64,000 nucleotides of DNA. It comes from a phage. Positions within the stretch are counted from its first letter, which is position 1, and every line of letters starts with the position of its first letter. The notes beneath the pieces are model-generated. The model saw nothing but the letters and a program-made list of their open reading frames with translations, made no database searches and was not told the DNA's origin. A program made the position numbers and the translations under genes. Below are positions 32,828 to 50,300 of this stretch, one piece after another. The DNA is taken from NCBI GenBank assembly GCA_010671865.1, contig GCA_010671865.1_4083.1, one strand, 5' to 3'.

Positions 32828-32839
32828 GATAAAACTCCT

Positions 32840-32912
32840 TAATTTAGGAGGGAGAACCATTTCCCCCTCTCTATGTAAAACATTATACTTGATTCTAAGT
32901 ACTATGCAAGTA
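32840..32912 (-). promoter_or_regulatory. promoter plus 5'-leader hairpin cassette
   Basis: minus strand: TTGCAT-16-TATAAT-GTTTTACAT then hairpin GAGGGGGAAATGGTTCTCCCTCC then AAGGAG RBS; approximate. Confidence 0.5.
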
Positions 32913-32916
32913 CTTT

Positions 32917-33249
32917 TTACATTTTAATACCTGGATTCAGGTAGCGGTGAGATCCATATTCTGGATCGGTTTCGGTCCAGTACTGTAAATCGATAGTACC
33001 TTTCGCGTTAATCTTGTCTACCAGCTTATTCATCTTAGTGTATACTACGTCAGCATCGATGCGTTTAAAGCCAGTAGCTTTAGTGAAGTAGTAGTGATTT
33101 GCTTCACTATCATTAAGGATATACCGAGCACCGTTTGCAGTCTGTGCGATAATGATTGAGTATTCTACTTCCCGATCCAGACCGTCGATGAATACAGATG
33201 AAACATTGGTACGGATGAAAGCTTTAACGATAGCGATTGAAGTACTCAT
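32917..33249 (-). CDS. hypothetical protein
   Basis: 110-aa ORF; AGGAG RBS. Confidence 0.55.
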   Translation of the reverse strand: MSTSIAIVKAFIRTNVSSVFIDGLDREVEYSIIIAQTANGARYILNDSEANHYYFTKATGFKRIDADVVYTKMNKLVDKINAKGTIDLQYWTETDPEYGSHRYLNPGIKM

Positions 33250-33332
33250 TTTGAATCTCCTAACTTTGTGGGCCGTCGCACCATTGCCGCCCTACGAGAT
33301 ACATTATTGCAGTACTGATATACTTTGTCAAT
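33250..33332 (-). promoter_or_regulatory. promoter plus leader hairpin cassette
   Basis: minus strand TTGACA-17-AATAAT then GC-rich hairpin before RBS of 32917..33249; approximate. Confidence 0.45.
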
Positions 33333-33453
33333 ACTTTTTTTATTAATAGTTTTCACCCCACCAGCAGATAGTTACTCACCGTTATTAACTATATATTTTA
33401 GATACACTCCTGCACCCAGTGGGCTAGTTTTTGTCTATGCGTATATAATAGCA

Positions 33454-33487
33454 AAGGGACTGACCGGAGTCAATCCCTTTTTTTATT
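33454..33487 (-). terminator. bidirectional intrinsic terminator (repeated element, copy 1)
   Basis: hairpin AAGGGACTGAC-CGGA-GTCAATCCCTT flanked by A-run and T-run; 17 nt downstream of stop of 33496..33696. Confidence 0.55.
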
Positions 33488-33495
33488 CTTTTTTG

Positions 33496-33696
33496 TTAGA
33501 TGATTCTCCAATCTTCTACGATCATGGTAAGATAACGGACCATCGATTCAAGTGATTCGAATTCCCGATAGTCTGCCGCTCCACCAGCGGTACAAGTACA
33601 GCCGATTAAACCATTTTGTAATTCCTTAATCTGTACATCGATAAGGTTGGCTTTAGCTTCTTTCAGTACTTCAACCAGGGCGAGAGCGATAGACAT
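33496..33696 (-). CDS. hypothetical protein
   Basis: 66-aa ORF; GGAG RBS; own promoter cassette. Confidence 0.55.
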   Translation of the reverse strand: MSIALALVEVLKEAKANLIDVQIKELQNGLIGCTCTAGGAADYREFESLESMVRYLTMIVEDWRII

Positions 33697-33699
33697 AAT

Positions 33700-33780
33700 G
33701 TTTTACTCCAAACTATTGGCGGGAGAACTATTCCCCCGCTCTATGTAAAACATTATACATTACTGGTTAGTACTGTCAAA
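33700..33780 (-). promoter_or_regulatory. promoter plus leader hairpin cassette
   Basis: minus strand TTGACA-16-TATAAT-GTTTTACAT, hairpin GAGCGGGGGAATAGTTCTCCCGCC; approximate. Confidence 0.5.
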
Positions 33781-33786
33781 TAGTTT

Positions 33787-34044
33787 TTATGAAATATCTT
33801 CGATGTAGTCGGCCCATTTCATTTTTTCAGTACTGTCAATGGCTACCGGATTATTTGGATCAAACCATTCACCATTACCGCAATACATACCAACGGCTAC
33901 GGTTTTATAGCCATCCTGGGCAGTACACCACGACATTGCACGATAGATATGGCCTTTAACTGGTTGCAGTACTGGTAACGTTTTATGGTCTTCTACGTAG
34001 GCCATAGCTTGAGGATTTACCCGATATTGTGTGAACTGTTCCAT
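33787..34044 (-). CDS. hypothetical protein
   Basis: 85-aa ORF; AAGGGG RBS. Confidence 0.55.
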   Translation of the reverse strand: MEQFTQYRVNPQAMAYVEDHKTLPVLQPVKGHIYRAMSWCTAQDGYKTVAVGMYCGNGEWFDPNNPVAIDSTEKMKWADYIEDIS

Positions 34045-34120
34045 TATGTTTCCCCTTGTAGTTAGTAAAGTTATTACATCAGTACTATCAAGCTATGTCA
34101 ATAGTACTGAAATAAAACTT

Positions 34121-34345
34121 TTAGATTAGATTATTGAGGCCGTCAATGGTAGACTCACTTTCTTCTTTCTCCCATTGTCGGTAGTACTTCCATGCTTCAT
34201 GATAGGTGGCGATTAGTTCATCTTTTTGATCCTGGTTACATGCCAGTACTGAATCACGGTGAGCGGTGTTATAGATAGAATCGAATGATTTCTTCTCTTC
34301 TGCCAGGTTAGCTACTTCCCGCATCAGTTCATCAAAGTTAGCCAT
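34121..34345 (-). CDS. hypothetical protein
   Basis: 74-aa ORF; AAGGAG RBS. Confidence 0.55.
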   Translation of the reverse strand: MANFDELMREVANLAEEKKSFDSIYNTAHRDSVLACNQDQKDELIATYHEAWKYYRQWEKEESESTIDGLNNLI

Positions 34346-34422
34346 TTTATTACTCCTTTTAGTGGGGGAGGATATATCCCCCTATGCAAAACATTATACT
34401 TTGTTTTAGTTATTATGCAAGT
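34346..34422 (-). promoter_or_regulatory. promoter plus leader hairpin cassette
   Basis: minus strand TTGCAT-16-TATAAT-GTTTTGCAT, hairpin GGGGGATATATCCTCCCCC; approximate. Confidence 0.5.
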
Positions 34423-34676
34423 ACTTTTTTCATATAAACATTATATTCTACACCGCCGTAACCTTCCACGATGATATGTTTTGCGTTATCACGTTTGCAC
34501 ATAGTGAAACCATCGTTTACGTGTTTTGCATTTTCCAGGGCGACATCACCGATAGCGGCACATACTGAACTAATAACGATATTCCGCAAAGTACTGGTAT
34601 CATTAGCGGTCATAGTAGTTTGCAGTACTACGTTGTCGTATACGTGTGCATTGATAGTGATTTCGATAGTGTTCAT
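34413..34676 (-). CDS. hypothetical protein
   Basis: track ORF 34413..34730 trimmed to MNTIEIT; the upstream MFYIERGKWFPL is a translation of the promoter/hairpin cassette. Confidence 0.55.
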   Translation of the reverse strand: MNTIEITINAHVYDNVVLQTTMTANDTSTLRNIVISSVCAAIGDVALENAKHVNDGFTMCKRDNAKHIIVEGYGGVEYNVYMKKVLA

Positions 34677-34758
34677 GGTGTATCTCCTGGACTTGAGGGG
34701 AAACCATTTCCCCCTCTCGATATAAAACATTATACGTTAATCTAACTACAATGCAAGT
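34677..34758 (-). promoter_or_regulatory. promoter plus leader hairpin cassette
   Basis: TTGCAT-16-TATAAT-GTTTTATATC, hairpin GGGGAAATGGTTTCCCC; approximate. Confidence 0.5.
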
Positions 34759-34763
34759 ACTTT

Positions 34764-34955
34764 TTAAATTTTATTTCCGATATAGTCCGGCCTATTCTTT
34801 TCGGTCATACGCTTTGCTAATGTTTGCATATAGCTTATCGCGTTTAAGGTGTCTTCCTCCAGGGATGAATCAACATAATCAGGATCATTCTTCACCTTGC
34901 AATGATTATGATAGCGTAGTACTGCCAGTACTTTTTTAACTTCTTCAACTGTCAT
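34764..34955 (-). CDS. hypothetical protein
   Basis: 63-aa ORF; ATGA overlap with upstream gene. Confidence 0.5.
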   Translation of the reverse strand: MTVEEVKKVLAVLRYHNHCKVKNDPDYVDSSLEEDTLNAISYMQTLAKRMTEKNRPDYIGNKI

Positions 34956-35224
34956 AATAAGTATTCCACTTCGTTAGCTTTCAGGTTAGTATCAATCATC
35001 AGTGGTTTTTTGTAGTCCACAAAACGATTAGTTTTCTCGATAGCGAAGCCCATATAATCCAGCTTGCTTACAGTACATTCATTCTTAAAAACTTCTTTCG
35101 CGGCATTGATGGCTGATTCAATTGATAACCGACCATCTAAGTTAATGTTACCAAATGATCCACCAGCAGAAGTAGGATTACCGTTCATATCTTTAATAAT
35201 CATAGTAGCGGAGTAGCTGGACAT
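34952..35224 (-). CDS. hypothetical protein
   Basis: 90-aa ORF; AAGGAAAC RBS. Confidence 0.55.
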   Translation of the reverse strand: MSSYSATMIIKDMNGNPTSAGGSFGNINLDGRLSIESAINAAKEVFKNECTVSKLDYMGFAIEKTNRFVDYKKPLMIDTNLKANEVEYLL

Positions 35225-35308
35225 AATTTTGTTTCCTTTTATTGGTGGGGAGAACTATTCTCCCCCTTGATGTAAACTATTATACAGTACTGATATACTT
35301 TGTCAATA
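35225..35308 (-). promoter_or_regulatory. promoter plus leader hairpin cassette
   Basis: TTGACA-16-TATAAT, hairpin GGGGGAGAATAGTTCTCCCCACC; approximate. Confidence 0.5.
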
Positions 35309-35309
35309 C

Positions 35310-35531
35310 TTAATTACGGATAAAGTGATAAAGACCATTATCATCATTAACGCCCCATACTGATTTACCATTTAAACCAGTGAAGCCGGATTGCAATTCA
35401 ATATGGAAACCGTTAGCATCAACGACGAAAACTTTTTTATTTTCATCCCGATAGCATTGATATTCTTCACCTGCTTTAAATGCTGCATCATTCAGAAGAT
35501 TTGAAGCGTGAACGCAGGTCATAGTAGCCAT
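35310..35531 (-). CDS. hypothetical protein
   Basis: track ORF 35310..35588 trimmed to MATMTCVHAS (AAGGAA RBS); upstream part is cassette read-through. Confidence 0.55.
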   Translation of the reverse strand: MATMTCVHASNLLNDAAFKAGEEYQCYRDENKKVFVVDANGFHIELQSGFTGLNGKSVWGVNDDNGLYHFIRN

Positions 35532-35616
35532 CGTCTTGATTCCTTTTAGTACCAGGGGGAACCATTTCCCCCTCTCGATATAAAACATTATACGCTCATT
35601 GAGATAGTTTGCAAGT
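35532..35616 (-). promoter_or_regulatory. promoter plus leader hairpin cassette
   Basis: TTGCAA-17-TATAAT-GTTTTATATC, hairpin GGGGGAAATGGTTCCCCC; approximate. Confidence 0.5.
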
Positions 35617-35717
35617 ACTTTTTATCAAATAGTTTTCAGTACTGAATACTTATATAATAGATACACTTCCGCACCCTATGGGTCAGTGAGTTATCTCTCA
35701 ATGAATATATAATAGCA

Positions 35718-35748
35718 AAGGGACTGACTGGAGTCAATCCCTTTTTTA
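35718..35748 (-). terminator. bidirectional intrinsic terminator (repeated element, copy 2)
   Basis: hairpin AAGGGACTGACTGGAGTCAATCCCTT plus T-run; just downstream of stop of 35756..36340. Confidence 0.55.
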
Positions 35749-35755
35749 ATCTTTT

Positions 35756-36340
35756 TTATCGTGTTATAGTTATCGCGTTAACATCACGTTTTTTATAGTA
35801 CTGATTCCAGATATTGCGGGTTAAACCGTAATCAAGTACTTTAATCAAGCCGTTGCGATCCTGGCCGATATTCTGTTTTCTGATATCTCTTATCGTTAGT
35901 GTGGATAATGTATCATCAACGTGATTGAGAGCATCAGCGAAATGGTGTTGGCGTTCTACCGTATTACGTTTAATATTGTACTTTAACTCATTGCACGCGT
36001 TTACATGCTTTACACTGCCTTTGCTTGCAGTACTCAAACGATCCATAACAATAAACAGATTATCAGGATCGCATAAATGCATATGCACCTTGGCAAAGAA
36101 CTGTTTAAGGTGCGGACGGTCATAATCTAAAAAATTCCATACCTTACATTCAGTTTCATTTTGTTCTACACCCGCATCACAATTCGCGACCTTAATCACT
36201 AACCGATCATTTAAAGCGAATACAATACGGGAAGAACCCGCACCGACGATCTCCAGTCCAGCTAACCGACAAGCTGAAAGGATCTCTTTGTTGGTTTCCA
36301 TTGCATGAAGTGAACGGATGAATTTAGTATAGTTACGCAT
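35756..36340 (-). CDS. putative protein kinase-like protein
   Basis: trimmed to MRNYTKF (AAGGAG RBS); motifs in canonical order: Gly-rich GAGSSRIVF, VIKV, catalytic-loop-like IRDIRKQN, DFG-like LDYG. Confidence 0.4.
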   Translation of the reverse strand: MRNYTKFIRSLHAMETNKEILSACRLAGLEIVGAGSSRIVFALNDRLVIKVANCDAGVEQNETECKVWNFLDYDRPHLKQFFAKVHMHLCDPDNLFIVMDRLSTASKGSVKHVNACNELKYNIKRNTVERQHHFADALNHVDDTLSTLTIRDIRKQNIGQDRNGLIKVLDYGLTRNIWNQYYKKRDVNAITITR

Positions 36341-36371
36341 TGTGTTGACTCCTTGAGTTAATGAAACTATA

Positions 36372-36614
36372 TTACAGTACTTTACTATCAATGGCAACTA
36401 CTTTTTTTACTTGAACTGCGTGGAATACTTCACGCGTATTTTTAGTACTGAATACTTTTGCCGTACCTTGTTCGACCGCAATACGATATCGACCGTTAAC
36501 GTCCACCATGTTGATAAAGTCCGGTGTACTGAATGGAGTTACCCGGCATTTAAGAACGGTTAACAGTTCCACCAGCGTTGTAGTCTCTTTGATACGTTTT
36601 TCTAAAGTAATCAT
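36372..36614 (-). CDS. hypothetical protein
   Basis: track ORF 36372..36671 trimmed to MITLEKR; upstream MTVLKCFSTMYAYQ is promoter read-through. Confidence 0.5.
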   Translation of the reverse strand: MITLEKRIKETTTLVELLTVLKCRVTPFSTPDFINMVDVNGRYRIAVEQGTAKVFSTKNTREVFHAVQVKKVVAIDSKVL

Positions 36615-36671
36615 TTTGTTTTCCCCGTGTTGGTATGCGTACATAGTACTAAAACATTTGAGTACTGTCAA

Positions 36672-36890
36672 TTAGATAATAGAATATTTCTTTAGTGATA
36701 ATGCGTCTTCTGTCGGTTGATATTCTACACCGTTCCCGTTATCAACCTTAGTGAGTAAACCTTTATCAATGAGTTTTTTGATGGTACGGTTTCCCTGTTG
36801 AAAACTGGTGAAGTGTGAATCATTACGAAAGGTATAACCGTGCTTCACTGCTTCATCAATAGTTTTCTTTTCGATTTTAGATAATTTCAT
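36672..36890 (-). CDS. hypothetical protein
   Basis: track ORF 36672..36950 trimmed to MKLSKIEK; same promoter type as 36372..36614. Confidence 0.5.
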   Translation of the reverse strand: MKLSKIEKKTIDEAVKHGYTFRNDSHFTSFQQGNRTIKKLIDKGLLTKVDNGNGVEYQPTEDALSLKKYSII

Positions 36891-36946
36891 TTTGTTTCTC
36901 TCTCTGTGTTGGTATAGATACATAATACTAAAACAATTGAGTACTG

Positions 36947-37201
36947 TCAACGTGATATTAGTTTTATTTTTTTATTGTATTGTTGGTGTTCATATAGATT
37001 AATTTTTCCAGTACTCTCAATTACTATTCTATTGTTAGTGTCTACATCGATAACACGTAGTTTCCCGTTGCTTAACTTCCTGGGTAATAGACTACCATTA
37101 ATAAACTCATTAGCAAGCTGTACGGCCTTTGTGATGATTCTCTGTGGTGCTTTATAGTGTACCCGCAAGATATTATCTTTAGATAGTTGTACCTTCATCA
37201 T
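36947..37201 (-). CDS. hypothetical protein
   Basis: 84-aa ORF. Confidence 0.5.
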   Translation of the reverse strand: MMKVQLSKDNILRVHYKAPQRIITKAVQLANEFINGSLLPRKLSNGKLRVIDVDTNNRIVIESTGKINLYEHQQYNKKIKLISR

Positions 37202-37214
37202 TTTAGTTTATCCT

Positions 37215-37243
37215 ATAAAAAAAGGCGGGAACTGAACCCGCCG
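37215..37243 (-). terminator. intrinsic terminator
   Basis: minus strand GGCGGGTTCAGTTCCCGCC hairpin followed by TTTTTTT; downstream of 37266..37661. Confidence 0.6.
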
Positions 37244-37265
37244 TGTTGTTAGTACTGCAAAGTTT

Positions 37266-37661
37266 TTAGATAACCTGGCGGCGTTTACTGTATACTGTTA
37301 CACGGTTTCCTTTACGGTCATGACGGATCTCTTTCTGGTTACGAATCAGTTCACTTGGACGCTTAAGGTTTGCCAGGTGATCCGCGTGAGTCCATGCATT
37401 TGCGTTAACTGTAACTTCAATATCAGAACCTTTCAAAAAGTCATCTTGAGCGTTCAGTACTTCAGCCAGTTCTTGAGCTTGCTTTAGTTCTGCTTCAGTA
37501 AGTACAGGCTCAGGTGAATTCACAATATCAGAGATCTCTTTGAACTGTACCGCCCAGCGTTGTCCTTTCGGTGCATCTTTGCCCATGTCTTTAAATGTTT
37601 CACCTTCTTCACGAGCAACGATGCGAGCTTGTTCACGGGTAGCGAAGAATTTAGTAATCAT
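37266..37661 (-). CDS. hypothetical protein (paralog of 49170..49436)
   Basis: track ORF trimmed to MITKFFATREQ; shares FATREQARI...FKDMG...DRKGNRVTVY with 49170..49436. Confidence 0.55.
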   Translation of the reverse strand: MITKFFATREQARIVAREEGETFKDMGKDAPKGQRWAVQFKEISDIVNSPEPVLTEAELKQAQELAEVLNAQDDFLKGSDIEVTVNANAWTHADHLANLKRPSELIRNQKEIRHDRKGNRVTVYSKRRQVI

Positions 37662-37760
37662 GGTGTACATCCTATTAGTTAAGTTAATTAGTACTACAAG
37701 TTAGAGTCTATTATAAAGTACTATCTGGGCAATGTCAAATAGTACTTTAAATGGATTCTA

Positions 37761-38084
37761 TTACATGTCTTTTTTACGTTTTACATCGTAGTAACGAACT
37801 GTAATTTCTTTGTTGATCTCATCCTCAATTCTGTGTAGTACTTTCTCTTTCGGGTTGAAACCTATTACAGTTTCTTTAATGATCTCCAAGCCCGTGTATT
37901 CGCCTTGTGTACCGTAACCGTAAGTAAAGGTTTCATGTCCCAGGTCTTCCCAGCGGTCACCAATCAATGCAGACACGTAGCATGAGTGGTAAGTATTGCC
38001 GTGGCTATCAGTCCACCGATTAACTTTAATGTCAAAGGAAGTTACAATTTTCATTTCTACTTTCTGGGCAAGGATCATAGTCAT
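37761..38084 (-). CDS. hypothetical protein (paralog of 43890..44213)
   Basis: 107-aa ORF; shares RWTDSHGNTYHSC...FTYGY...RKKD with 43890..44213. Confidence 0.6.
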   Translation of the reverse strand: MTMILAQKVEMKIVTSFDIKVNRWTDSHGNTYHSCYVSALIGDRWEDLGHETFTYGYGTQGEYTGLEIIKETVIGFNPKEKVLHRIEDEINKEITVRYYDVKRKKDM

Positions 38085-38170
38085 TTTAATTTCTCTCTTT
38101 TTGTTAGGAAGGGAACCATTCCCCTCACTTGATGTAAACTATTATACAGTACTAAGATACTTTGTCAATA
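38085..38170 (-). promoter_or_regulatory. promoter plus leader hairpin cassette
   Basis: TTGACA-16-TATAAT, hairpin GGGGAATGGTTCCC; approximate. Confidence 0.5.
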
Positions 38171-38171
38171 C

Positions 38172-38447
38172 TTAAGTATTGTAAATGTCGTGAATAGTGA
38201 TAAAGTTTTTACGACCGTAAACATGTAAATCAGTATCAATGTAGTGCTTATCAAGTACATCCTCGACGCTTAAAGCCGTGTCGTGAATATCTTCATAGAA
38301 TTGTGGATCTACAATCTTACTTAAATCATCCGGCGTTAACTTATCATTGAGCCATTGCACCGCCTGGATATCTGCATCACGTTTCCAGTCTTCCAGGTTA
38401 GTAGTCAGTACTTGCTCGATTTCGTTAGCTGTCAGTAGAATCCGCAT
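38172..38447 (-). CDS. hypothetical protein
   Basis: 91-aa ORF. Confidence 0.55.
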   Translation of the reverse strand: MRILLTANEIEQVLTTNLEDWKRDADIQAVQWLNDKLTPDDLSKIVDPQFYEDIHDTALSVEDVLDKHYIDTDLHVYGRKNFITIHDIYNT

Positions 38448-38528
38448 TTTAATTTCTCTCTTTGTTAGGTGGGGAACTATTCCCCACTTGATGTAAAATA
38501 TTATACAGTACTAAAAACTATTGTCAAA
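38448..38528 (-). promoter_or_regulatory. promoter plus leader hairpin cassette
   Basis: TTGACA-16-TATAAT, hairpin GTGGGGAATAGTTCCCCAC; approximate. Confidence 0.5.
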
Positions 38529-38536
38529 CTATTTTA

Positions 38537-38737
38537 TCAAATTGTTTCCCATTTCATGTTACCCGCTTTACGCTGTGAAACAGGAATAAACATGTTATTA
38601 ATGTTACTAATATAACCGACCTGTAAGTCACGCTGTGAACCATACGCCCGACTTGCTGCATTTTTAGCACCGCGTTCTGATTTATAAACGCCGCTGGATA
38701 CTGTAAAGCCTACTACACCGAAAGTAAAATGTTTCAT
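38537..38737 (-). CDS. hypothetical protein
   Basis: 66-aa ORF; long leader with tandem promoters. Confidence 0.5.
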   Translation of the reverse strand: MKHFTFGVVGFTVSSGVYKSERGAKNAASRAYGSQRDLQVGYISNINNMFIPVSQRKAGNMKWETI

Positions 38738-39049: not shown

Positions 39050-39058
39050 CAATTATTT

Positions 39059-44213: not shown

Positions 44214-44299
44214 TTTAGTATTCCTTAAATTAATATGTGTCGTCTTGATAAAATCTATTATGCCAGTACTATCAAACTATGTCAATAGTACTGTGATAA

Positions 44300-44448
44300 T
44301 ATTTTTTACTTACTTTTTGCTTTCTTTGCTGCTTCCACCTGGTCGGCCCATTCTTTACCCCATACTTGTAAATTATAATGGTACTGGCAAAGTGCAACGC
44401 CCCGCTTTAAACCCGTAATAGATTTCTGACCACATTGACAAGTTTTCA
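44300..44448 (-). CDS. hypothetical small Cys-containing protein (~47 aa)
   Basis: rough hand translation MKTCQCGQKSITGLKRGVALCQYHYNLQVWGKEWADQVEAAKKAKSK; approximate. Confidence 0.3.
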
Positions 44449-44534
44449 TATTAGTTTCCTTGTAGTGGGGAGAATCATTTCTCCCCTTGATGTAATGTAT
44501 TATACTTTATTCGATTTACTTTGCAAGTACTTTT

Positions 44535-44762
44535 TTAATTTAATTCATCCAGGCAAAGGATACGTTCCACACCAAGATCCGTTAAACTAATGGTCGGTAC
44601 TTGATAGGTTTCAATGTATGCTACACTTGCCCACTGACCGAACTCATTAACGGCCCAGGTATTCATTGCATTTTGCAATTCCACACCTTCCTTGTTGGTA
44701 ATGACTGCAACTACTTGTTCGTTGCCAGTAGTACCAGATACGCGAGTAATGATAATAGCCAT
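44535..44762 (-). CDS. hypothetical protein
   Basis: 75-aa ORF; promoter TTGACA-17-CATAAT. Confidence 0.55.
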   Translation of the reverse strand: MAIIITRVSGTTGNEQVVAVITNKEGVELQNAMNTWAVNEFGQWASVAYIETYQVPTISLTDLGVERILCLDELN

Positions 44763-44837
44763 TTTTTAATTCCTATTCAGTAGTTGATGTATGTATTATG
44801 TCAGTACTTAAAACTATTGTCAAACTATTTTTTAAAG

Positions 44838-44985
44838 TTTATCAATGATTGATGCCGTTTCATTGATAGTCTTGCCGTGTTTTGCACACGCGATAACTGC
44901 TTTAAATTCCTTTGATGACCAATCTTTCTTGCTGCATACTGACATTACTTGTAAAGTAAAACAATCCAGTTCATAAGTATTCATC
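44838..44985 (-). CDS. hypothetical small protein (~49 aa)
   Basis: rough hand translation MNTYELDCFTLQVMSVCSKKDWSSKEFKAVIACAKHGKTINETASIIDKL; approximate. Confidence 0.3.
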
Positions 44986-45209
44986 TTTAAATCCTCAGTT
45001 AGTTAAGGTGTCTCGCCTTGATGTAATTAATTATACGCTAATCTCTTAATCGTGCAAGTACTTTTTATTACTTTTTGCAAAATACTTTAAACGCTCTCAA
45101 TCGCATTCTAACGGCCTTCACGCCACCAGCTAGGGCAATGCATCAGATAATCAGTTTAATGCGTTAGAATCGATTCTATCGGGTGCTAGTGGACTGGTAA
45201 ACGATAGAT

Positions 45210-45238
45210 ACAAAAAAGCCCACTGTTTAAGGTGGGCT
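45210..45238 (-). terminator. intrinsic terminator
   Basis: minus strand AGCCCACCTTAAACAGTGGGCT hairpin followed by TTTTTTG; downstream of 45260..45742. Confidence 0.6.
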
Positions 45239-45259
45239 AGTGATTCAGTACTTTAATTG

Positions 45260-45742
45260 TTATGCTTCAACTTTGCGATGAGCTTCGATCCATTCCTCGC
45301 GAGTCATACCGCTTTCTTTGATAGCGTCCAGTACTACCGCAATGCAGTTACCGCGTACAGGAATCATATGTTCTTCCCCGTTATCAAGTACTACAGTAAC
45401 ACGTTCTTGAATCCATTTTTTAGGTTTAGATTCTGGCTTATCTTCACCATACTTAACCGCCAGGGCTTTATGTGCCATTTCTACAACTACTTCCAGATCC
45501 AATCCAGACACCGCCGCCTGGATACTTTCGATTGTTGCTTGTAGTTCTGCTTCACGGGCTTTTTTCTGTTCTTCCAGTTCTGCTACCTTTTTGGCTTGCA
45601 GTTCTTTAGCTTCACTGTACGCAATGTTAAAATTGTTGCGTACTGCTTTCATGGTATCGTTATCCAGGTCAGCCAACAATTCAGCAGCAATAACAGTATC
45701 GTTTGAAATCAGTGCTTTCAGGAATGATTTTACATTAGCCAT
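45260..45742 (-). CDS. hypothetical protein with predicted coiled-coil segment
   Basis: track ORF trimmed to MANVKSF (GAGGA RBS); heptad-like KELQAKKVAELEEQKKAREAELQATIESIQAA. Confidence 0.55.
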   Translation of the reverse strand: MANVKSFLKALISNDTVIAAELLADLDNDTMKAVRNNFNIAYSEAKELQAKKVAELEEQKKAREAELQATIESIQAAVSGLDLEVVVEMAHKALAVKYGEDKPESKPKKWIQERVTVVLDNGEEHMIPVRGNCIAVVLDAIKESGMTREEWIEAHRKVEA

Positions 45743-45939
45743 TTTATAAATCCTCAATTAAAGTTTAGTTTACGTTTATTAGTGTATCAAAGTTTTATCG
45801 ACGTGTCCAGTTTTTCGTTCGACTTACTGGCGGTCTACTTAGTGCTCCCCGTCTTGATGTAATACATTCTACGCCTTTTTGTGGTAATGTCAACTACTAT
45901 TTTAAAACTATTTTTAAAGTATGCAGTACTACGATACTA

Positions 45940-45973
45940 CAAAAACAAAAAAGCCCACTGTTTAAGGTGGGCT
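45940..45973 (-). terminator. intrinsic terminator (same hairpin sequence as 45210..45238)
   Basis: identical AGCCCACtgtttaaGGTGGGCT hairpin with A/T runs; downstream of 45991..46290. Confidence 0.6.
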
Positions 45974-45990
45974 AGTGATTCAGTACTATA

Positions 45991-46290
45991 TTATAAACAG
46001 TTAATTACTCCGGTGTGCGTTACTTTCTCAGTATCCATAACAGTGACCGAACCGCGTTTAGTACTTGCATCGTAATAAATTGTCGTGCTACCTTTTTCGT
46101 CTTCTTCATGGAACGGCCCGTTTTTAAATGCTTCTGGCTGGATCTCTAAATCCTTTAAAACAATCTCGCCAGTACTTTCATTGGTCATCGCTACAGTGCA
46201 CTGAATGAATTTTTCACTACTTACATCTAACGACGCATTAACAGCGAAAGAGGAAACAGATAAAGCCAGGGCGATGATTGCAACTTTCAT
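45991..46290 (-). CDS. hypothetical secreted/periplasmic protein
   Basis: 99-aa ORF; N-terminal signal-peptide-like MKVAIIALALSVSSFAVNA with A-x-A cleavage context. Confidence 0.5.
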   Translation of the reverse strand: MKVAIIALALSVSSFAVNASLDVSSEKFIQCTVAMTNESTGEIVLKDLEIQPEAFKNGPFHEEDEKGSTTIYYDASTKRGSVTVMDTEKVTHTGVINCL

Positions 46291-46375
46291 TAGTATATCC
46301 TTAGTTACCAGGGGGGAACCGCTCCCCCTTGCGATGTAAAATATTGTACAGTACTAAAAACTAATTGCAAGTACT
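46291..46375 (-). promoter_or_regulatory. promoter plus leader hairpin cassette
   Basis: TTGCAA-16-TGTACAATAT, hairpin GGGGGAGCGGTTCCCCCC then TGGTAACTAAGGA RBS; approximate. Confidence 0.45.
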
Positions 46376-46612
46376 TTATGATTTTTTATAAAACATTTCG
46401 GCAGTGATATTTTTACCCGTTGGTTGTACTTTATCCAGAATTTTTTGATGCCCTGGCCGTCCAAATGAATATGATCCGTAAACCGTAAACCAGTAGTTAC
46501 CCTCAGTGTTTACATGTACAGCACAATAGGGAACGCCCCGCGATTCATCACTAGTAAAGTGTGCTACCGTTCCCGTTACATTCGAAGACGTTGATTTGAT
46601 TTGTTCGACCAT
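46376..46612 (-). CDS. hypothetical protein
   Basis: 78-aa ORF. Confidence 0.55.
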   Translation of the reverse strand: MVEQIKSTSSNVTGTVAHFTSDESRGVPYCAVHVNTEGNYWFTVYGSYSFGRPGHQKILDKVQPTGKNITAEMFYKKS

Positions 46613-46720
46613 TTTCTTATTCCTTAGTTACCAGGGGAACCGCTCCCCCTATGCAAAACATTATACGCGTTTAAAAACTAATTGCAAGTATTTTAATAAA
46701 AAGTATTTGAAAAATAATTG

Positions 46721-46749
46721 TTGACAAGTGCATCCAGTACTGGCATAAT
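46721..46749 (+). promoter_or_regulatory. candidate plus-strand promoter (antisense or small-RNA transcript)
   Basis: TTGACA-17 nt-CATAAT on plus strand in a minus-strand gene region; a palindromic hairpin lies ~80 nt downstream. Confidence 0.4.
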
Positions 46750-46819
46750 TACTACATCAAGACGAAACAGTCACTAACCCACCGGGTGCCGAGATCCGTC
46801 TATTAAATGATTCAGTACT

Positions 46820-46848
46820 GAAAAAAGAAAGGGGATCAATTGATCCCC
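46820..46848. terminator. bidirectional terminator (perfect palindrome)
   Basis: GGGGATCAATTGATCCCC flanked by A-run and T-rich run; downstream of minus gene 46855..47076. Confidence 0.55.
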
Positions 46849-46854
46849 TCGTTG

Positions 46855-47076
46855 TTATTTTGTAAGGTATAAACAGAAGTCACCTTTATTTGCTACGCCG
46901 CCAGTGTAACGCGAGGAATAGTTAGAAACGTCCTGGACTTCTGCTATTACCAGGGTATCATCATTCAATTCGTCGCAGAAGCAAACGGCTGGATCTTGTA
47001 CGCCGATTTTGTCGGCATGTTCCCGCATAGATTTAACCAGTGCTTCCAGTTGGGAAAGAGTAGTGATATTAGCCAT
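46855..47076 (-). CDS. hypothetical protein
   Basis: track ORF trimmed to MANITTL (GAGGAAA RBS). Confidence 0.55.
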   Translation of the reverse strand: MANITTLSQLEALVKSMREHADKIGVQDPAVCFCDELNDDTLVIAEVQDVSNYSSRYTGGVANKGDFCLYLTK

Positions 47077-47160
47077 TTTATTTTCCTCATTACCAGGGAG
47101 AACCATTTCTCCCTTGATGTAAACTATTATACAGTACTGAAAACTAATTGCAAGTACTTT
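47077..47160 (-). promoter_or_regulatory. promoter plus leader hairpin cassette
   Basis: TTGCAA-16-TATAAT, hairpin GGGAGAAATGGTTCTCCC then TGGTAATGAGGAAA RBS; approximate. Confidence 0.5.
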
Positions 47161-47161
47161 T

Positions 47162-47422
47162 TCAATATTGTTTGTCGTCGTCTTCCTCGATGAATTGACC
47201 GACGAAATGATCTACTTTCGCTTTGAGGCTTTTATAATCTTCTTCTACTTCCGTTAAACGTTCCTGGTAGTATTCCAGTGCCTCAAGATACGCCGCCTCA
47301 GCAGTTTTTGCACGCATAGCTAAATTCATTCCACGCGTTTCATCAAATAGCCAATAACCATCGGTGCAATGACTGATAGATAATGACTTGCTTAGTACTG
47401 TATAGTTAATTACTTTACTCAT
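47162..47422 (-). CDS. hypothetical protein
   Basis: track ORF trimmed to MSKVINY; upstream part reads through the leader hairpin. Confidence 0.5.
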   Translation of the reverse strand: MSKVINYTVLSKSLSISHCTDGYWLFDETRGMNLAMRAKTAEAAYLEALEYYQERLTEVEEDYKSLKAKVDHFVGQFIEEDDDKQY

Positions 47423-47480
47423 TAGATAAACCCTCAATAAAGGCGGGAACCATTCCCCGCCATTGTTACAGTACTGAATA

Positions 47481-47720
47481 TTACATTCCAACCATTGCAG
47501 CACGGATCGCAGTAGTGCTATACTTAAAGCCGTCCGGCGTTGTAGTAGTACCGTTGGCTTTTAATCTGCGGTACATGCATTCCGCTGCAATATCTTTAGT
47601 TCTACTTTGTGCGATACAACTTTGTGCAAGCCGATACAATGACTCACCGTTATTAATCCATAAGGAAACATTCCAATGAGTTTTGTTTTTGTGCCCGTTG
47701 TAAGTTTTAGTACTAGCCAT
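47481..47720 (-). CDS. hypothetical protein (mosaic paralog of 49523..49762)
   Basis: 79-aa ORF; conserved GHKNKTHWNVSLWINN and TPDGFKYSTTAIRAAMVGM termini, divergent centre. Confidence 0.6.
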   Translation of the reverse strand: MASTKTYNGHKNKTHWNVSLWINNGESLYRLAQSCIAQSRTKDIAAECMYRRLKANGTTTTPDGFKYSTTAIRAAMVGM

Positions 47721-47812
47721 TTTTTTTAATCCTCGTTTGAGCGGGGAACCATTCCCCGCCTCGATATAAAGTATTATACGCTTTTAAACTTAGTTTGCAA
47801 GTACTTTTTAAA

Positions 47813-48424
47813 TTAATATTCGATTGATTCTACTACACCATCAATGACATTGAATTGATATTCGTTACCCTCAATCAGTGCCGTAATGTTTTCAGTAGTG
47901 AATTGATCCTCATATGCATTCTCTAAATCACGGTACAACTTGCGGGATAATTCACGAATAGTTTCAGTGAGTAGTTCCTCAAGCTCATTAACTAACGTTT
48001 CTTGTTTTGCGGTTAAATCAGTGTAAGCCGATTCAATGTACCCGCTTACAGTATTCTCATGCGAGTAGTGGGAGTGAGAACGCTTTACACTCATCGGCAA
48101 ATCATCTTCATTCAGCAGGTGACGGATTGAGCGATACTTAGTTAATGCTCTTACCTTGCGTAAAAACTTCACTGCGTCAACGTGGTCAGTACTGATTGAT
48201 GCACCGTCACCCTGGGACCAAAAACCACTGAATTGTATTTCAGCGTCATTAATGCCATATTCCGGCAATACTGTTTCTTTATAGTGTTCAATTTCACTTT
48301 CAGAAAAATAATCGTCGTTTGAGTTTTTTTCACGTTCCCGAACTAGTTCGATAGCTGACGTTTTTTGTTCTGCGTTCAATTCAGAAAAAGCCATAACATA
48401 AGTAGTAGTAGTGATAGTTTTCAT
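47813..48424 (-). CDS. hypothetical protein
   Basis: 203-aa ORF; GAGGG RBS; long leader with tandem promoters. Confidence 0.55.
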   Translation of the reverse strand: MKTITTTTYVMAFSELNAEQKTSAIELVREREKNSNDDYFSESEIEHYKETVLPEYGINDAEIQFSGFWSQGDGASISTDHVDAVKFLRKVRALTKYRSIRHLLNEDDLPMSVKRSHSHYSHENTVSGYIESAYTDLTAKQETLVNELEELLTETIRELSRKLYRDLENAYEDQFTTENITALIEGNEYQFNVIDGVVESIEY

Positions 48425-48647
48425 TTTGTAACCCTCATTCAGTAGTTTATGTAAGTATTATACGCTTTTAAAAACAATTGTCAAACTATTTTATCAGGGG
48501 AGTTTTTCGTGTGCCTTACTCCTGGGCTACTTAACGGGAAGTTACTTATTTCGTTCCCCGTCCTGATGTAAAACATTATACGCCTTTAAACATAGTTTGC
48601 AAGTACTTTTTAAAAATAGTTTTCAGTACTGAATAGTAAAAAAAAGT

Positions 48648-48676
48648 ATTGACAGCATTATCAAGTACTGGCATAA
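48648..48676 (+). promoter_or_regulatory. candidate plus-strand promoter
   Basis: TTGACA-17 nt-CATAAT on plus strand; same AGTACTGGCATAAT core as 46721..46749. Confidence 0.4.
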
Positions 48677-48851
48677 TATACCCCATGACAACAGCTAACC
48701 CACCGGGTGCACAATTGTAACTATACTAAACTACTTTTTCTATAGATACACTCCCGCACCCTATGGGCTACGGCTTATCTGCCAATGAATACATTATGCC
48801 AGTACTGACAAAATAAGTCAATACCGGCAATTGTAAAGATTTGTAAACTGC

Positions 48852-49082
48852 TTATACTGCAATCGCGTCCAGGCTATAATAATAATAAGTGCCGTATTGG
48901 TGTACTTTATTACCTTTTATTTCAGTACTGAATGAATCCGAACGGTTTGCATATGATGTTAATTTAAAGTACTTTGATTTGCTGATACGTTGCCATACAC
49001 CGCAGATCCGCTGTAAGTAAGTAGTTTTATTCGTGGTAGTATCTTTTACGGTTTTAACTTCAGTCATATACATATTAGTCAT
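48852..49082 (-). CDS. hypothetical protein
   Basis: 76-aa ORF. Confidence 0.5.
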   Translation of the reverse strand: MTNMYMTEVKTVKDTTTNKTTYLQRICGVWQRISKSKYFKLTSYANRSDSFSTEIKGNKVHQYGTYYYYSLDAIAV

Positions 49083-49169
49083 TTTTATTACTCCAGGTTA
49101 TAGGCGGGAAGTGTTCCCGCTCTCGATGTAAAACATTATACGCCATTAAACATAGTTTGCAAGTACTTT

Positions 49170-49436
49170 TTATTCAAGTACTGCAATCTTTTTAGTACGG
49201 TACACGGTCACGCGGTTGCCCTTTCGGTCGAGCTTTATTTCTACCACTCGACGCGATACACTATCGGGACTTTTTAACGCCGCTAACCAGTACTGTAATG
49301 ATCTGGCGGTACTACGCTTTACAATGGCCCAACGTTCACCACTTGCCGATCCCGCTCCCATATCTTTAAACGTTGCCCCGTCCTGGCGTGCGGCGATCCG
49401 AGCTTGTTCACGCGTCGCAAAATACTTAATATTCAT
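49170..49436 (-). CDS. hypothetical protein (paralog of 37266..37661)
   Basis: track ORF trimmed to MNIKYFATREQ; shares FATREQARI...FKDMG...DRKGNRVTVY. Confidence 0.55.
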   Translation of the reverse strand: MNIKYFATREQARIAARQDGATFKDMGAGSASGERWAIVKRSTARSLQYWLAALKSPDSVSRRVVEIKLDRKGNRVTVYRTKKIAVLE

Positions 49437-49522
49437 GCTGTTACCCTTATCGTTGGTGTATGAATAAAACACTATTATAAAGTACTATCGCAAAAAAATG
49501 ATAGTACTTTAAATAAATTCTA

Positions 49523-49762
49523 TTACATTCCAACCATCGCCGCACGGATCGCAGTAGTGCTATATTTGAATCCGTCCGGTGTTTTATCTTGTCCAGTCTG
49601 TTCTAAAAATAGCATCATATGACGGGCCGCATCATTGCGATTTGTGCTATCGTTAATAAAGTCCTGGGCCAACCGGTATAATGATTCATCGTTATTAATC
49701 CAAAGGCTTACATTCCAATGAGTTTTGTTTTTGTGACCTAAGAACATTTTTGATTTAGCCAT
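49523..49762 (-). CDS. hypothetical protein (mosaic paralog of 47481..47720)
   Basis: 79-aa ORF; identical C-terminal 19 aa and conserved N-terminal block. Confidence 0.6.
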   Translation of the reverse strand: MAKSKMFLGHKNKTHWNVSLWINNDESLYRLAQDFINDSTNRNDAARHMMLFLEQTGQDKTPDGFKYSTTAIRAAMVGM

Positions 49763-49857
49763 TTTTTTTTAATCCTCTTATATAGTGGGGAACTATTCCC
49801 CACCTGATAGAAAGTATTATACGCCTTTAAACTTACTTTGCAAGTACTTTATTAAAC

Positions 49858-50220
49858 TTATTCGTAAATCTTGCCACTGTCAGCCCATACCAGGAAACGA
49901 GGCATATTATCCCATGCATCTTGTTTTAAGTTTAAGCCGTGCAATACTTCTGTACTTTCCATTCCTGGTACTGGCTTGCTATACACTGCAAACATTTCGC
50001 CCATGTACTGATAAGCCATCGTTAAATCAGTCTGGATCATCTTATGGATCATTGCATCCAGCATTGCAGTAGCGGCGTACTGTTCACGCTTAAGCGGCAA
50101 CATTGCAATAAGTTCCCGATAAGCTGAAATGTGAATTTTTACCGTTTCTGCCGGAAGATCTTTCATCTCGTCGCGGAAGTTAACCAGGTTAGCAATAATT
50201 TTATTGATTTGAGTCGCCAT
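49858..50220 (-). CDS. hypothetical protein
   Basis: track ORF trimmed to MATQINK; upstream MFYIESG is promoter/hairpin read-through. Confidence 0.55.
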   Translation of the reverse strand: MATQINKIIANLVNFRDEMKDLPAETVKIHISAYRELIAMLPLKREQYAATAMLDAMIHKMIQTDLTMAYQYMGEMFAVYSKPVPGMESTEVLHGLNLKQDAWDNMPRFLVWADSGKIYE

Positions 50221-50300
50221 CGTTTTAATCTCTCTTAATGTGTAGCGGGAAGTGTTCCCGCTCTCGATGTAAAACATTATACGCTTTTAAACATAGTTTG
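50221..50300 (-). promoter_or_regulatory. promoter plus leader hairpin cassette
   Basis: TTGCAA-16-TATAAT-GTTTTACATC, hairpin GAGCGGGAACACTTCCCGC; approximate. Confidence 0.5.

Follow-up and report, generated by a model that had tools for sequence, protein, structure and literature searches.

Promoter and predicted leader-hairpin cassettes in the direct terminal repeat of an Asteriusvirus jumbo coliphage

The nearest counterparts of the elements treated here are the promoter-early stem-loops (PeSLs) of T4-like phages, in which a sigma70-like promoter with an AT-rich upstream region and a GGGG..CCCC stem-loop ends in a Shine-Dalgarno (SD) sequence and ATG, and which are found in hyperplastic regions (Arbiol et al. 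2010, PMC2839356). In this report we describe a family of comparable ~90-bp units, the cassettes, which stand in front of small genes in a stretch of phage DNA of 64,000 nucleotides (GenBank assembly GCA_010671865.1, contig GCA_010671865.1_4083.1), referred to as the window. Probably, these cassettes are immediate-early expression units of the direct terminal repeat (DTR) of the phage, each with a hairpin in its 5′ leader, at which genes are exchanged.

The stem-loop of a PeSL may lie in the interval from the -35 to the -10 box, over one box or the other, in the AT-rich stretch upstream, or shortly ahead of the start site; it has been interpreted as a terminator or attenuator for upstream transcription, and recombination of PeSLs yields indels and mini-circles (PMC2839356). 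In phages PST and nt-1 its place is immediately upstream of the promoter (Comeau et al. 2014, PMC4122927). Two PeSLs of RB49 that we read directly have the sequences TTGACAGCATGAAAC-GGGGGTAgtaataTACCCCC-ATCGAAACG and TTGACG-CGGGGAGAAATCCCCG-CTATAAT, with the hairpin within the promoter in both; the RB49 stem-loop lies between -35 and -10 or spans -10. Because they are positioned within or upstream of the promoter, the stem-loops of RB49, PST and nt-1 lie outside the promoter's own transcript and are met only by transcription arriving from upstream.

The Rak2-like phage vB_PcaM_CBB, a member of a related jumbo-phage group, possesses RpoD-like promoters of consensus sigma70 type with UP-like elements, concentrated ahead of short hypothetical open reading frames (ORFs) in its early region and terminal repeat; 18 promoters were reported, and no leader hairpin, cassette repeat family or gene-exchange role was described (Buttimer et al. 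2017, PMC5259590). Arbiol et al. drew an analogy between PeSLs and both morons and integron gene cassettes (PMC2839356). As in those systems, single genes here move with, or into, their own expression signals; the difference is that neither an integrase nor an attC-type site is involved, and homologous recombination between cassettes explains the exchange best. In the literature that we searched on Asteriusvirus, RaK2-like phages, CBB, rV5-like and phi92-like phages, fEgEco12 and Sharanji, no promoter-hairpin cassette family, leader hairpin, PeSL or cassette-mediated exchange is described. PeSLs, the early and terminal-repeat promoters of CBB with their UP elements, and a DTR of ~20 kb were already known; what is added here is the leader-hairpin geometry in Asteriusvirus.

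In a database comparison the window is 91-95% identical to the Asteriusvirus genomes JP4, CRJP21, slurp01, phAPEC6 and 121Q. The source phage is thus a jumbo Escherichia coli phage of that genus (121Q/phAPEC6 group; Caudoviricetes, no family assigned). It is not one of the T4-type phages whose PeSLs had served for comparison in the original prediction, which had been made from the sequence alone; the closest records are those of JP4, phAPEC6, 121Q and their kin. DTRs of 20-21.5 kb have been established in this genus by PhageTerm and restriction mapping (PMC13070987; PMC11895373). Position 1 of the vB_Ec-M-J record aligns to window 51891, and the 21,525-bp "Direct Terminal Repeats" annotated there (1-21525) end at window ~31997. 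In the JP4 record, window 51891 is joined straight to window 31996, i.e., to a tandem copy of the repeat. The repeat in the window is accordingly delimited as follows.

31997..51891, minus strand: direct terminal repeat, ~19.9 kb, holding every cassette

It is near-certain that the cassette block coincides with the DTR. The remaining 44 kb of the window contain no cassettes, and the physical genome end maps to window 51891, with transcription of the cassette genes directed inward from that end. The original prediction had remarked on an unusually high density of cassettes; it is accounted for by the block being a ~20-kb direct terminal repeat, a structural reason that could not be seen from the letters alone. 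With a hairpin ΔG of -9 or lower as the cutoff, the minus strand of the window has 25 promoter-plus-hairpin units, none of them outside 32909-51526; there are 30 in vB_Ec-M-J and 10 in the distant Klebsiella phage fENko-Kae01, all within the annotated DTRs. The density of perfect GC-rich hairpins is 1.0 per kb within the DTR, ~7 times the 0.14 per kb seen outside it. Intergenic gaps within the DTR measure ~85-100 nt and are occupied by cassettes; just outside it (window below 31996; vB_Ec-M-J above 21,600) the genes abut or overlap.

The DTR carries ~50 small genes encoding proteins of 38-203 amino acids, and 65% of it is coding. Comparison of ten of the proteins with Pfam and PHROGs yielded nothing beyond a DksA/TraR zinc finger, DUF7247 and a kinase-like match below threshold; small proteins, mostly without an assigned function, fit an immediate-early host-takeover block. 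The terminal repeats of phage T5 hold pre-early genes for small host-takeover proteins, which are transcribed from very strong sigma70 promoters by the unmodified host RNA polymerase. The two arrangements are alike in that a long direct terminal repeat with small genes is the first DNA available in the cell; T5 belongs to an unrelated phage lineage and, to our knowledge, has no reiterated promoter-hairpin cassette. A tRNA scan found none.

Two further observations concern the repeat. The JP4 GenBank record (PQ330092.1, locus 1-35000) holds the ~20-kb terminal repeat twice in tandem in mid-record; it looks like a permutation at a concatemer junction and not like a genome that has the repeats at its ends. 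The terminal ~1.6 kb beside the physical genome end (50316-51891) have no convincing ORF, the first coding sequence of vB_Ec-M-J beginning at the equivalent of window 50220; what they contain is a consensus promoter at 51526, whose leader hairpin is of another kind and longer, together with two plus-strand promoters and repeated elements.

Twenty-two canonical cassettes were counted, which bears out the original claim of at least 20 genes so equipped; they lie where they had been placed and are all on the minus strand, as are their genes. In order, they comprise an A-rich UP region, TTGCAA or TTGACA, 16 bp, TATAAT, GTTTTACAT, a GC-rich hairpin, an SD sequence and ATG, with a conserved AT-rich discriminator and start region (GTTTTAC-AUC(A/G)A...). 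The stems are 6-9 bp and GC-rich, and the loops 3-8 nt; the distance from hairpin to SD is 5-10 nt and that from hairpin to ATG 17-24 nt. If the transcript is assumed to start 8 nt after the -10 box, as the consensus predicts, then the stem lies downstream of the start, by about 5 nt, in all 22 cassettes, beginning 11-14 nt after -10. Of 23 cassette-type hairpins, 22 follow a promoter at this same distance; the fixed spacing and the near-constant company of a promoter support a link between the hairpin and the cassette's own transcript. One of the 22, with a weaker -10 (-35 at 40395), carries the same type of hairpin; three long-leader variants and ~17 promoters without a hairpin complete the set in the DTR. 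In the long-leader variants a leader of 75-110 nt replaces the short hairpin and folds only marginally better than shuffles. The individual units, with their hairpin arms, are listed below; folding energies and z-scores against dinucleotide shuffles are given in parentheses for some of them.

32828..32921, minus strand: cassette TTGCAT-N16-TATAAT-GTTTTACAT, hairpin GAGGGGGAA/TTCTCCCTC, SD, ATG at 32827 (-15.9 kcal/mol, z -2.7)
33697..33791, minus strand: cassette TTGACA-N16-TATAAT, hairpin GCGGGGGAA/TTCTCCCGC with one G·U pair, ATG at 33696 (-14.4 kcal/mol, z -3.5)
34346..34432, minus strand: cassette TTGCAT-N16-TATAAT, hairpin GGGGGA/TCCCCC, ATG at 34345 (-11.4 kcal/mol, z -0.4)
34677..34768, minus strand: cassette, hairpin GAGGGGGAA/TTTCCCCTC, ATG at 34676; TATAATG gives the false ORF MFYIERGKWFPL; different hairpin variant in the phAPEC6 and JP4 orthologues
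35225..35318, minus strand: cassette TTGACA-N16-TATAAT, hairpin GGGGAGAA/TTCTCCCC, ATG at 35224
35532..35626, minus strand: cassette, hairpin AGGGGGAA/TTCCCCCT, ATG at 35531; false ORF MFYIERGKWFPL
38085..38180, minus strand: cassette, hairpin GAGGGGAA/TTCCCTTC (G·U here, G-C in 121Q and JP4), ATG at 38084
38448..38539, minus strand: cassette, hairpin GTGGGGAA/TTCCCCAC, ATG at 38447; a hairpin-less chimeric cassette instead in JP4 and vB_Ec-M-J
39698..39786, minus strand: cassette, hairpin GGGGAGAA/TTCTCCCC, ATG at 39697
40321..40407, minus strand: variant cassette TTGACA-N17-TATAGT, hairpin AGGGGAA/TTCCCCT, ATG at 40320
41680..41771, minus strand: cassette, hairpin GGGGAGAA/TTCTCCCC, ATG at 41679
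42116..42206, minus strand: cassette, hairpin AGGGGAAA/TTTCCCCT, then GGTAA, ATG at 42115
42704..42793, minus strand: cassette, hairpin GGGGAG/CTCCCC (8-nt loop), ATG at 42703
42932..43022, minus strand: cassette, 99% identical to the 42704..42793 unit, ATG at 42931
44450..44538, minus strand: cassette, hairpin GGGGAGAA/TTCTCCCC, ATG at 44449; JP4 has something else in place of the 47-aa ORF that follows
46291..46382, minus strand: cassette TTGCAA-N16-TACAAT, hairpin GGGGGA/TCCCCC, ATG at 46290
46613..46699, minus strand: cassette, hairpin AGGGGGAG/(G)TTCCCCT, ATG at 46612; gene and cassette absent from 121Q, with the junction in the cassette
47077..47165, minus strand: cassette, hairpin AGGGAGAA/TTCTCCCT, ATG at 47076; the loop ATG gives the false start MVLPG
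47721..47812, minus strand: cassette, hairpin GCGGGGAA/TTCCCCGC, ATG at 47720
49083..49174, minus strand: cassette, hairpin GCGGGAA/TTCCCGC, ATG at 49082; gene with 95% protein identity to a gene of phi92-like JLBYU50 that has a similar cassette
49763..49855, minus strand: cassette, hairpin GTGGGGAA/TTCCCCAC, ATG at 49762
50221..50315, minus strand: cassette, hairpin AGCGGGAA/TTCCCGCT, ATG at 50220; false ORF MFYIESGNTSR (z -5.3)
38738..38923, minus strand: long-leader variant, a cassette promoter (-35 at 38911) with a structured leader of ~75 nt, then a second, hairpin-less promoter (-35 at 38795), ATG at 38737 (fold z -2.05)
48425..48614, minus strand: long-leader variant, paralogue (88%) of 38738..38923, promoters at 48602 and 48484, ATG at 48424 (fold z -1.62)
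45743..45905, minus strand: third long-leader promoter, TTGACA-N16-TAGAAT at 45893, ATG at 45742 (fold z -0.35)
47442..47461, minus strand: the sole cassette-type hairpin without a promoter, GGCGGGGAATGGTTCCCGCC followed by TTTATT; scored terminator-like

That the cassettes form a single repeat family is apparent from several counts. The core motif TATAATGTTTTACAT, with up to 2 mismatches, has 22 matches versus 1.44 expected, a number that none of 100 dinucleotide-preserving shuffles reaches; 20 of these matches are on the minus strand between 32873 and 51504. Independently, a repeat finder picked out two units, one of 73 nt in 18 copies and one of 57 nt in 17 copies. Under a strict promoter pattern (TTG[AC][AC][AT]-N16-18-TA[TCG]AAT), the minus strand shows 29 promoters from 32909 to 51526, almost every one of which has a 16-bp spacer and AAAAAGTAC ahead of it, and a consensus scan of the same strand found 11 perfect (12/12) TTGACA-N16/17-TATAAT sites. 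Altogether there are ~40 sigma70-type promoters in 19.9 kb (matches of at least 10/12 plus the TTGCAT class). In 21 leaders a GC-rich hairpin forms with a folding energy of -11.2 to -15.9 kcal/mol and begins 0-6 nt past the assumed start site; for 20 leaders the z-scores against dinucleotide shuffles range from -0.4 to -5.3, and are mostly -2 to -3.7. In two details the earlier description needs amendment. Stems of the GGGG(A)GAAA type do occur, but the stems are more varied, including GGGGAGAA, GGGGGAA, GCGGGAA, GTGGGGAA, GAGGGGAA and others; and TGGTAA after the hairpin, described as a general feature, is confined to 4-5 cassettes, most of them having an ACTAAC-like sequence instead.

No Rfam family matched the window at its gathering score, and in the DTR, searched by E-value, just two matches with E <=1 turned up, both at chance level. 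A cassette compared with 5,426 complete E. coli genomes had no match, and the cassettes are therefore not host or prophage elements.

For the analysis of selection on the hairpin, the window and six relatives supplied 92 unique hairpin leaders, which comprise 53 unique stems. MAFFT and RNAalifold applied to whole cassettes misaligned the hairpins and gave a meaningless consensus, and a loop-anchored analysis was used instead. The 53 stems show Watson-Crick pairs at 398 of 426 positions; there are 17 G·U pairs on the sense strand versus 5 A·C positions, which would be wobble pairs on the antisense strand only. In a gap-free alignment of the 19 distinct hairpins with 3-nt loops, 97.4% of cells pair, and five of eight pairs change on both sides. 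The covariation score is 0.478, compared with 0.178 for shuffles (0/500 reach 0.478) and at most 0.175 with a slid partner. Five inner pairs belonged to the rule by which hairpins were selected; the three outer pairs, which did not, show GC, AU, CG and UA.

Substitution rates from 32 orthologue comparisons of cassettes were 1% in the -35 box, 8.6% in the spacer, 0% in the -10 box, 3.6% in the discriminator, 0.8% in the first transcribed bases, 1.4-1.8% in the stem arms, 11.2% in the loop and 3.2% in the 3′ flank, the stem arms being 5-8 times more conserved than loops and spacers. Six of nine stem-arm substitutions (C/T opposite G, A-to-G opposite T) preserve pairing in the sense RNA, and the other three hit peripheral predicted pairs. 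Klebsiella phage K64-1 (Alcyoneusvirus) has the same layout of promoter, hairpin and SD with unrelated stems, e.g., GGAGATTCC/GGAATCTCC and GGGAATGAA/TTCATTCCC. Since the stems covary, resist drift, and are unrelated in K64-1, it is structure rather than sequence that is conserved and selected, with a modest bias to the sense RNA.

These data bear on two other explanations of the hairpin. It might be a functionless passenger in a duplicated promoter unit that was spread by recombination: the cassettes do form one repeat family, the hairpin accompanies ~20/29 N16-TATAAT promoters versus 1-2/13 N17 promoters, and it can be lost. Covarying stems that are so much better conserved than loops and spacers, and unrelated stems at the same position in another genus, make this extremely improbable. 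Alternatively, a protein of phage or host, such as an endoribonuclease, a translational repressor or some other RNA-binding factor, could recognize the hairpin RNA common to these leaders and switch the whole immediate-early regulon off or on at once. More than 20 mRNAs have the same structure in the same position, its conservation extends across genera, the first transcribed bases match the -10 box in conservation (0.8% vs 0%), and the GAA/TTC pairs that close the top of the stem hardly vary. Sequence-specific recognition is argued against by the free variation of stem sequence, stem length (6-9 bp) and loop (3-8 nt, 11% divergent) and by the unrelated K64-1 stems, and no candidate protein was identified, the DTR proteins mostly having no assigned function; we therefore hold it to be unlikely.

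A role like the one proposed for PeSLs, in which the hairpin terminates or attenuates incoming upstream transcription and so insulates the cassettes for expression of one gene at a time, has several points to commend it. PeSL stem-loops have been described as effective terminators, and one cut the expression of a lacZ reporter (PMC2839356); the RB49 PeSL hairpins likewise have no T-runs; and the promoter-less copy at 47442-47461 has a T-rich tail. Every upstream transcript must also cross the hairpin, because the upstream stop codons lie in or beside the UP region. However, all 22 cassette hairpins lack a following T-run, whichever strand is read, the tails being ACTAAC, GGTAAT, CTAACA, TCAAAC or similar, and a terminator scan of the DTR calls none of them, though the same scan finds ~9 genuine terminators there: 37224-37242, 45217-45238, 45952-45973 and 46829-46850 (with T-runs), four hairpins containing TTGACT, and 47442-47461. 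A hairpin in this location, behind the promoter, would affect the transcript of its own cassette as well, and its position is fixed relative to -10, whereas RB49 shows five variable placements (PMC2839356). The cassette hairpin does not have the makings of a canonical intrinsic terminator, and we consider a terminator or attenuator role unlikely.

Breakpoints were read from chained alignments of the window with JP4, phAPEC6, vB_Ec-M-J and 121Q, after removal of the jumps that arise from repeated cassettes and from the tandem DTR of JP4. Indel and replacement breakpoints fall in cassettes. From 15 distinct events come 30 breakpoints; 29 of them are placed between genes or no more than 12 nt from a start or stop codon, and about half are inside a cassette, from its -35 box to its ATG. 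Phage vB_Ec-M-J does not have gene 38737..38537, and has in its place a chimeric cassette in which the promoter and leader match the 38795 unit and the SD-ATG side matches the 38527 unit. Gene 44984..44832 is missing from phAPEC6 and JP4, where the 45057 promoter is fused via a hairpin leader to the 44762 gene. By explicit alignment, the junctions of these chimeric cassettes join 38453 to 38753 and 44774 to 45017. A stretch of ~410 bp that is present in JP4, phAPEC6, vB_Ec-M-J and 121Q, and in the region of which a GNAT acetyltransferase is annotated in JP4 (L001) and in the compared records L004 and L005, is missing from the window (40381-40385), with the junction inside the 40395 cassette. 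Gene 46612..46376 is absent from 121Q, with a 45-nt homology overlap at the junction, and the 47-aa ORF after the 44450..44538 cassette is replaced in JP4, with breakpoints 2 nt from its ATG and 10 nt from its stop. The chimeric cassettes are a stronger argument for exchange than breakpoints at gene boundaries, because selection against gene disruption alone would also leave the latter.

Whole hairpin variants have been swapped at the orthologous sites 34756, 49162 and 42781, and the hairpin is missing at 38527, a pattern to be expected from conversion among cassettes. Exchange also seems to reach beyond the genus. A 97-nt cassette query has matches of ~75-81% identity in phi92-like and other ~140-kb coliphages, and a 6-kb stretch of Justusliebigvirus JLBYU50 (phi92-like) holds homologues of nine DTR genes of the window, with 35-95% protein identity and in scrambled order. 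Three similar cassettes (e.g., TTGCAA-N16-TATAAT-GTTTTGC-AUAGAGAGCGGGAAUAGUUCCCGCC) stand ahead of several of these homologues. Some scrambling of gene order is also seen in a comparison with K64-1 and fENko-Kae01. As a separate observation, a 107-aa DUF7247 gene without a cassette of its own (39781-40104; region 39781-40131) is found, among the compared relatives, only in the window and JP4.

The inverted repeat could act in DNA instead, either as an operator for a dimeric regulator downstream of the start or as a cruciform or a signal for recombination by which gene exchange is targeted. The majority of the stems are perfect palindromes, folding equally on both strands; Arbiol et al. speculated that the GGGG..CCCC motif is the target of a recombination protein (PMC2839356); and crossovers map in or near the hairpins. 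The half-sites and their spacing vary, with a distance from GGG to CCC of about 9-14 nt, single changes favor G·U on the sense strand (17 vs 5), unlike those of a symmetric DNA site, and crossovers are also found in the promoter and SD parts, as plain homology predicts. Such a DNA-level role is quite improbable.

The cassettes, then, share with the PeSLs of RB49/phi1, PST/T4 and nt-1/KVP40 a near-consensus sigma70 promoter, an AT-rich upstream region, a stem-loop of a G-run and a C-run, and an end formed by the SD and ATG of the downstream gene; both are clustered among the small ORFs of a hyperplastic region, and in both the indel and replacement breakpoints between close relatives fall in or beside the units. 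They differ in that the Asteriusvirus hairpin is always 11-14 nt past -10, in the cassette's own predicted 5′ leader, in that the host lineage is Asteriusvirus and not a Straboviridae/T4-like myovirus, and in that the cassettes are confined to the terminal repeat. The likeness to PeSLs that had been suggested for this block therefore stands for the composite make-up, the small-ORF setting and the breakpoints, and fails for the hairpin placement and the T4-type lineage. No nucleotide homology to the RB49 PeSLs is detectable, the cassette search having no RB49 match. Gene 32827..32426 of the window has a 37%-identical homologue in ORF225c of RB49, itself preceded by a PeSL; because each of these genes follows its own type of cassette, the same gene family is served by lineage-specific cassette "dialects." We conclude that the cassettes are PeSL-like; they are a system of the PeSL kind, but neither in descent nor in geometry do they belong to the same family.

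How might such units work? The host sigma70 RNA polymerase would fire the cassette promoters as soon as the terminal repeat enters the cell, and the hairpin would be transcribed as the 5′-proximal structure of each mRNA and act on the sense-strand RNA. There it could shield the 5′ end from 5′-end-dependent decay, give each downstream ORF a constant folded context 5-10 nt upstream of the SD and, in read-through transcripts, perhaps block 3′ exonucleases on behalf of the upstream message. Such a stabilizer or insulator role is put forward tentatively, its chances being slightly less than even. That cassettes take part in recombination is considerably more plausible and quite likely true: they are ~60-100% identical to one another over 70-100 bp and repeated directly every 0.2-1 kb, and on this account could also serve as recombination sites. 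Homologous recombination between them would delete, insert and swap gene-plus-cassette modules, both within the genus and with phi92-like phages. The anatomy of the cassettes, their place in the DTR, the selection on the hairpin structure and the breakpoints within cassettes are shown by the data; the parts of this scheme that we infer are the start site, the early timing, the stabilizer or insulator role and the recombination mechanism.

A precedent for the leader hairpin is the 5′ untranslated region of E. coli ompA, the type of the 5′-terminal stem-loop mRNA stabilizers (Emory, Bouvet & Belasco 1992). In both, a stable hairpin a few nucleotides from the (here predicted) 5′ end is followed by an unstructured ribosome-binding region; the phage hairpin differs in being reiterated before more than 20 genes within a mobile promoter unit. 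Stabilizing hairpins reportedly need no more than about 2-4 unpaired 5′ nucleotides, a classical limit that the predicted tail of 0-6 nt sometimes exceeds, and this makes several cassettes borderline as stabilizers.

Other points, too, weigh against the proposed scheme. The start site and timing are predicted from the consensus alone. The hairpin is dispensable for at least one gene (38447; hairpin-less cassette in JP4 and vB_Ec-M-J), and the ~17 DTR promoters without one have already been mentioned. Because most stems are perfect palindromes, the antisense strand folds nearly as well (mean -13.1 vs -12.6 kcal/mol), and strand asymmetry of folding energy was set aside as uninformative evidence for the sense strand. 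The sense-strand G·U excess is modest and comes from related copies, and mutation bias could contribute to it. Gene-boundary breakpoints are also expected from purifying selection alone. Finally, an RB49 PeSL hairpin, though without a T-run, reportedly lowered downstream expression (PMC2839356), and on that account an attenuator role keeps some probability.

The analysis provides a map of first-gene expression in a 350-kb jumbo phage, with ~40 host-type promoters and ~9 terminators in the terminal repeat, and extends the idea of promoter cassettes as gene-shuffling sites beyond the T4-like phages. The different geometry, with the hairpin in the mRNA leader, leads to predictions on mRNA stability and on translation independent of context. 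Immediate-early genes are the expected home of anti-defense and host-takeover functions, and a cassette system that moved them between phage families would help to explain the turnover of their repertoire. As compact, presumably naturally insulated expression units that are, by promoter sequence, very strong, the cassettes may also suit engineering.

A practical result concerns annotation. Three ORFs of the mechanical track begin, as had been noted, within the cassette itself; each opens on the ATG that TATAATG contains, two of them with MFYIERGKWFPL and the other with MFYIESGNTSR. They are annotation artefacts that run in frame into the true downstream SD-ATG starts. Further false starts come from an ATG in the hairpin loop (MVLPP..., MVLPG...), where ATGG is preceded by GGAGAA. 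In all, the mechanical ORF starts at 32860, 47106, 34730, 35588 and 50277 (minus strand) lengthen five proteins by 10-19 residues. Our analysis corrects such ORFs, whether begun in TATAATG or in a hairpin loop; the public annotations of related phages likely carry the same start errors. The annotation of JP4 includes many tiny ORFs within cassettes.

Several other elements were found in the repeat and the window. The hexamer AGTACT (often CAGTACTG) is the commonest in the window, with 258 copies versus 21.6 expected from composition (12-fold). It is densest at 32000-56000, nearly absent at 16-24 kb and absent at 28-32 kb. The DTR holds 131 copies, at 11.4 per kb in intergenic versus 4.0 per kb in coding DNA; these are in all three reading frames, which points to selection acting on the DNA. 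The hexamer flanks both promoter boxes (aAGTAC-TTGCAA; cAGTACTG-TATAAT), a position conserved in Klebsiella phage K64-1. Neither an explanation nor a report of the AGTACT excess was found in the literature searched. The AGTACT excess, the second element family and the plus-strand small-RNA candidates described below may be more novel than the cassette finding.

The second family of promoter-proximal elements consists of TTGAC(T/A)-N16/17-(TATTAT/CATAAT/TATAAT) followed, 21-29 nt past -10, by an invariant CCC-N3/4-GGGTGC and then ..TGTATCTAT or ..CCGTCTAT. The CCC lies at 33423, 35682, 38990, 42261 and 48767 on the minus strand and at 46778, 48699, 50614 and 50830 on the plus strand. The DTR loci of seven phages in three groups contain 59 unique copies, 57 of them behind a promoter-like site. 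A small hairpin with a purine-rich loop (GAGAAA, AGATAA, AGAACAA) is present in 35 copies, in 23 versions; all four of its pairs change on both sides, and the covariation score is 0.184 versus 0.104 for shuffles (0/500), with slid controls at or below 0.058. This element could be a nut/boxB-like or other cis-acting RNA signal. A broader reading would take the leader hairpin and the second element (CCC-N3-GGGUGC with its covarying purine-loop hairpin) together as post-initiation RNA signals, for mRNA fate or nut-like antitermination via phage or host factors, that govern the immediate-early regulon of Rak2-like jumbo-phage terminal repeats, and the cassettes as exchange sites of a gene pool across families (Asteriusvirus, Alcyoneusvirus, phi92-like, T4-like); we regard this as rather unlikely.

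Four copies of the second family are headed by hairpins AAAGGGATTGACTCCGGTCAGTCCCTTT, at 33453-33480, 35717-35744, 39020-39047 and 42296-42323 on the minus strand, in which the TTGACT -35 box lies in the loop and stem and TATTAT follows. They stand ~60 nt upstream of ordinary cassettes and show the geometry of the RB49 PeSLs. Because they are terminator-like on the minus strand and have a clean T-run on the plus strand, these four may be bidirectional.

Plus-strand promoters, directed toward the genome end and opposite to the early genes, precede short non-coding stretches at 46721-46860, 48649-48800, 50559-50700 and 50780-50900. The promoter at 46721 runs ~95 nt into a bidirectional terminator at 46830-46849, which makes this unit a candidate for a small RNA; at 48649 the promoter faces a converging minus-strand promoter at 48821. 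The candidate plus-strand RNAs would span 46757-46857, ~48685-48800 and ~50595-50700. K64-1, too, has opposite-strand units of a similar sort.

Beyond the DTR, terminator-like hairpins of the form GCCAGTAC-loop-GTACTGGC with a T-rich tail (TTTCTTAT or similar) lie on the plus strand at 57840-57862, 60234-60252, 61444-61462, 62664-62682 and 63923-63943. Built from an AGTACT-related motif, they recur about every 1.2 kb. In the annotation of the relatives JP4 and 121Q, what would be the same neighborhood is an array of paralogous RCC1-like "regulator of chromosome condensation" genes.

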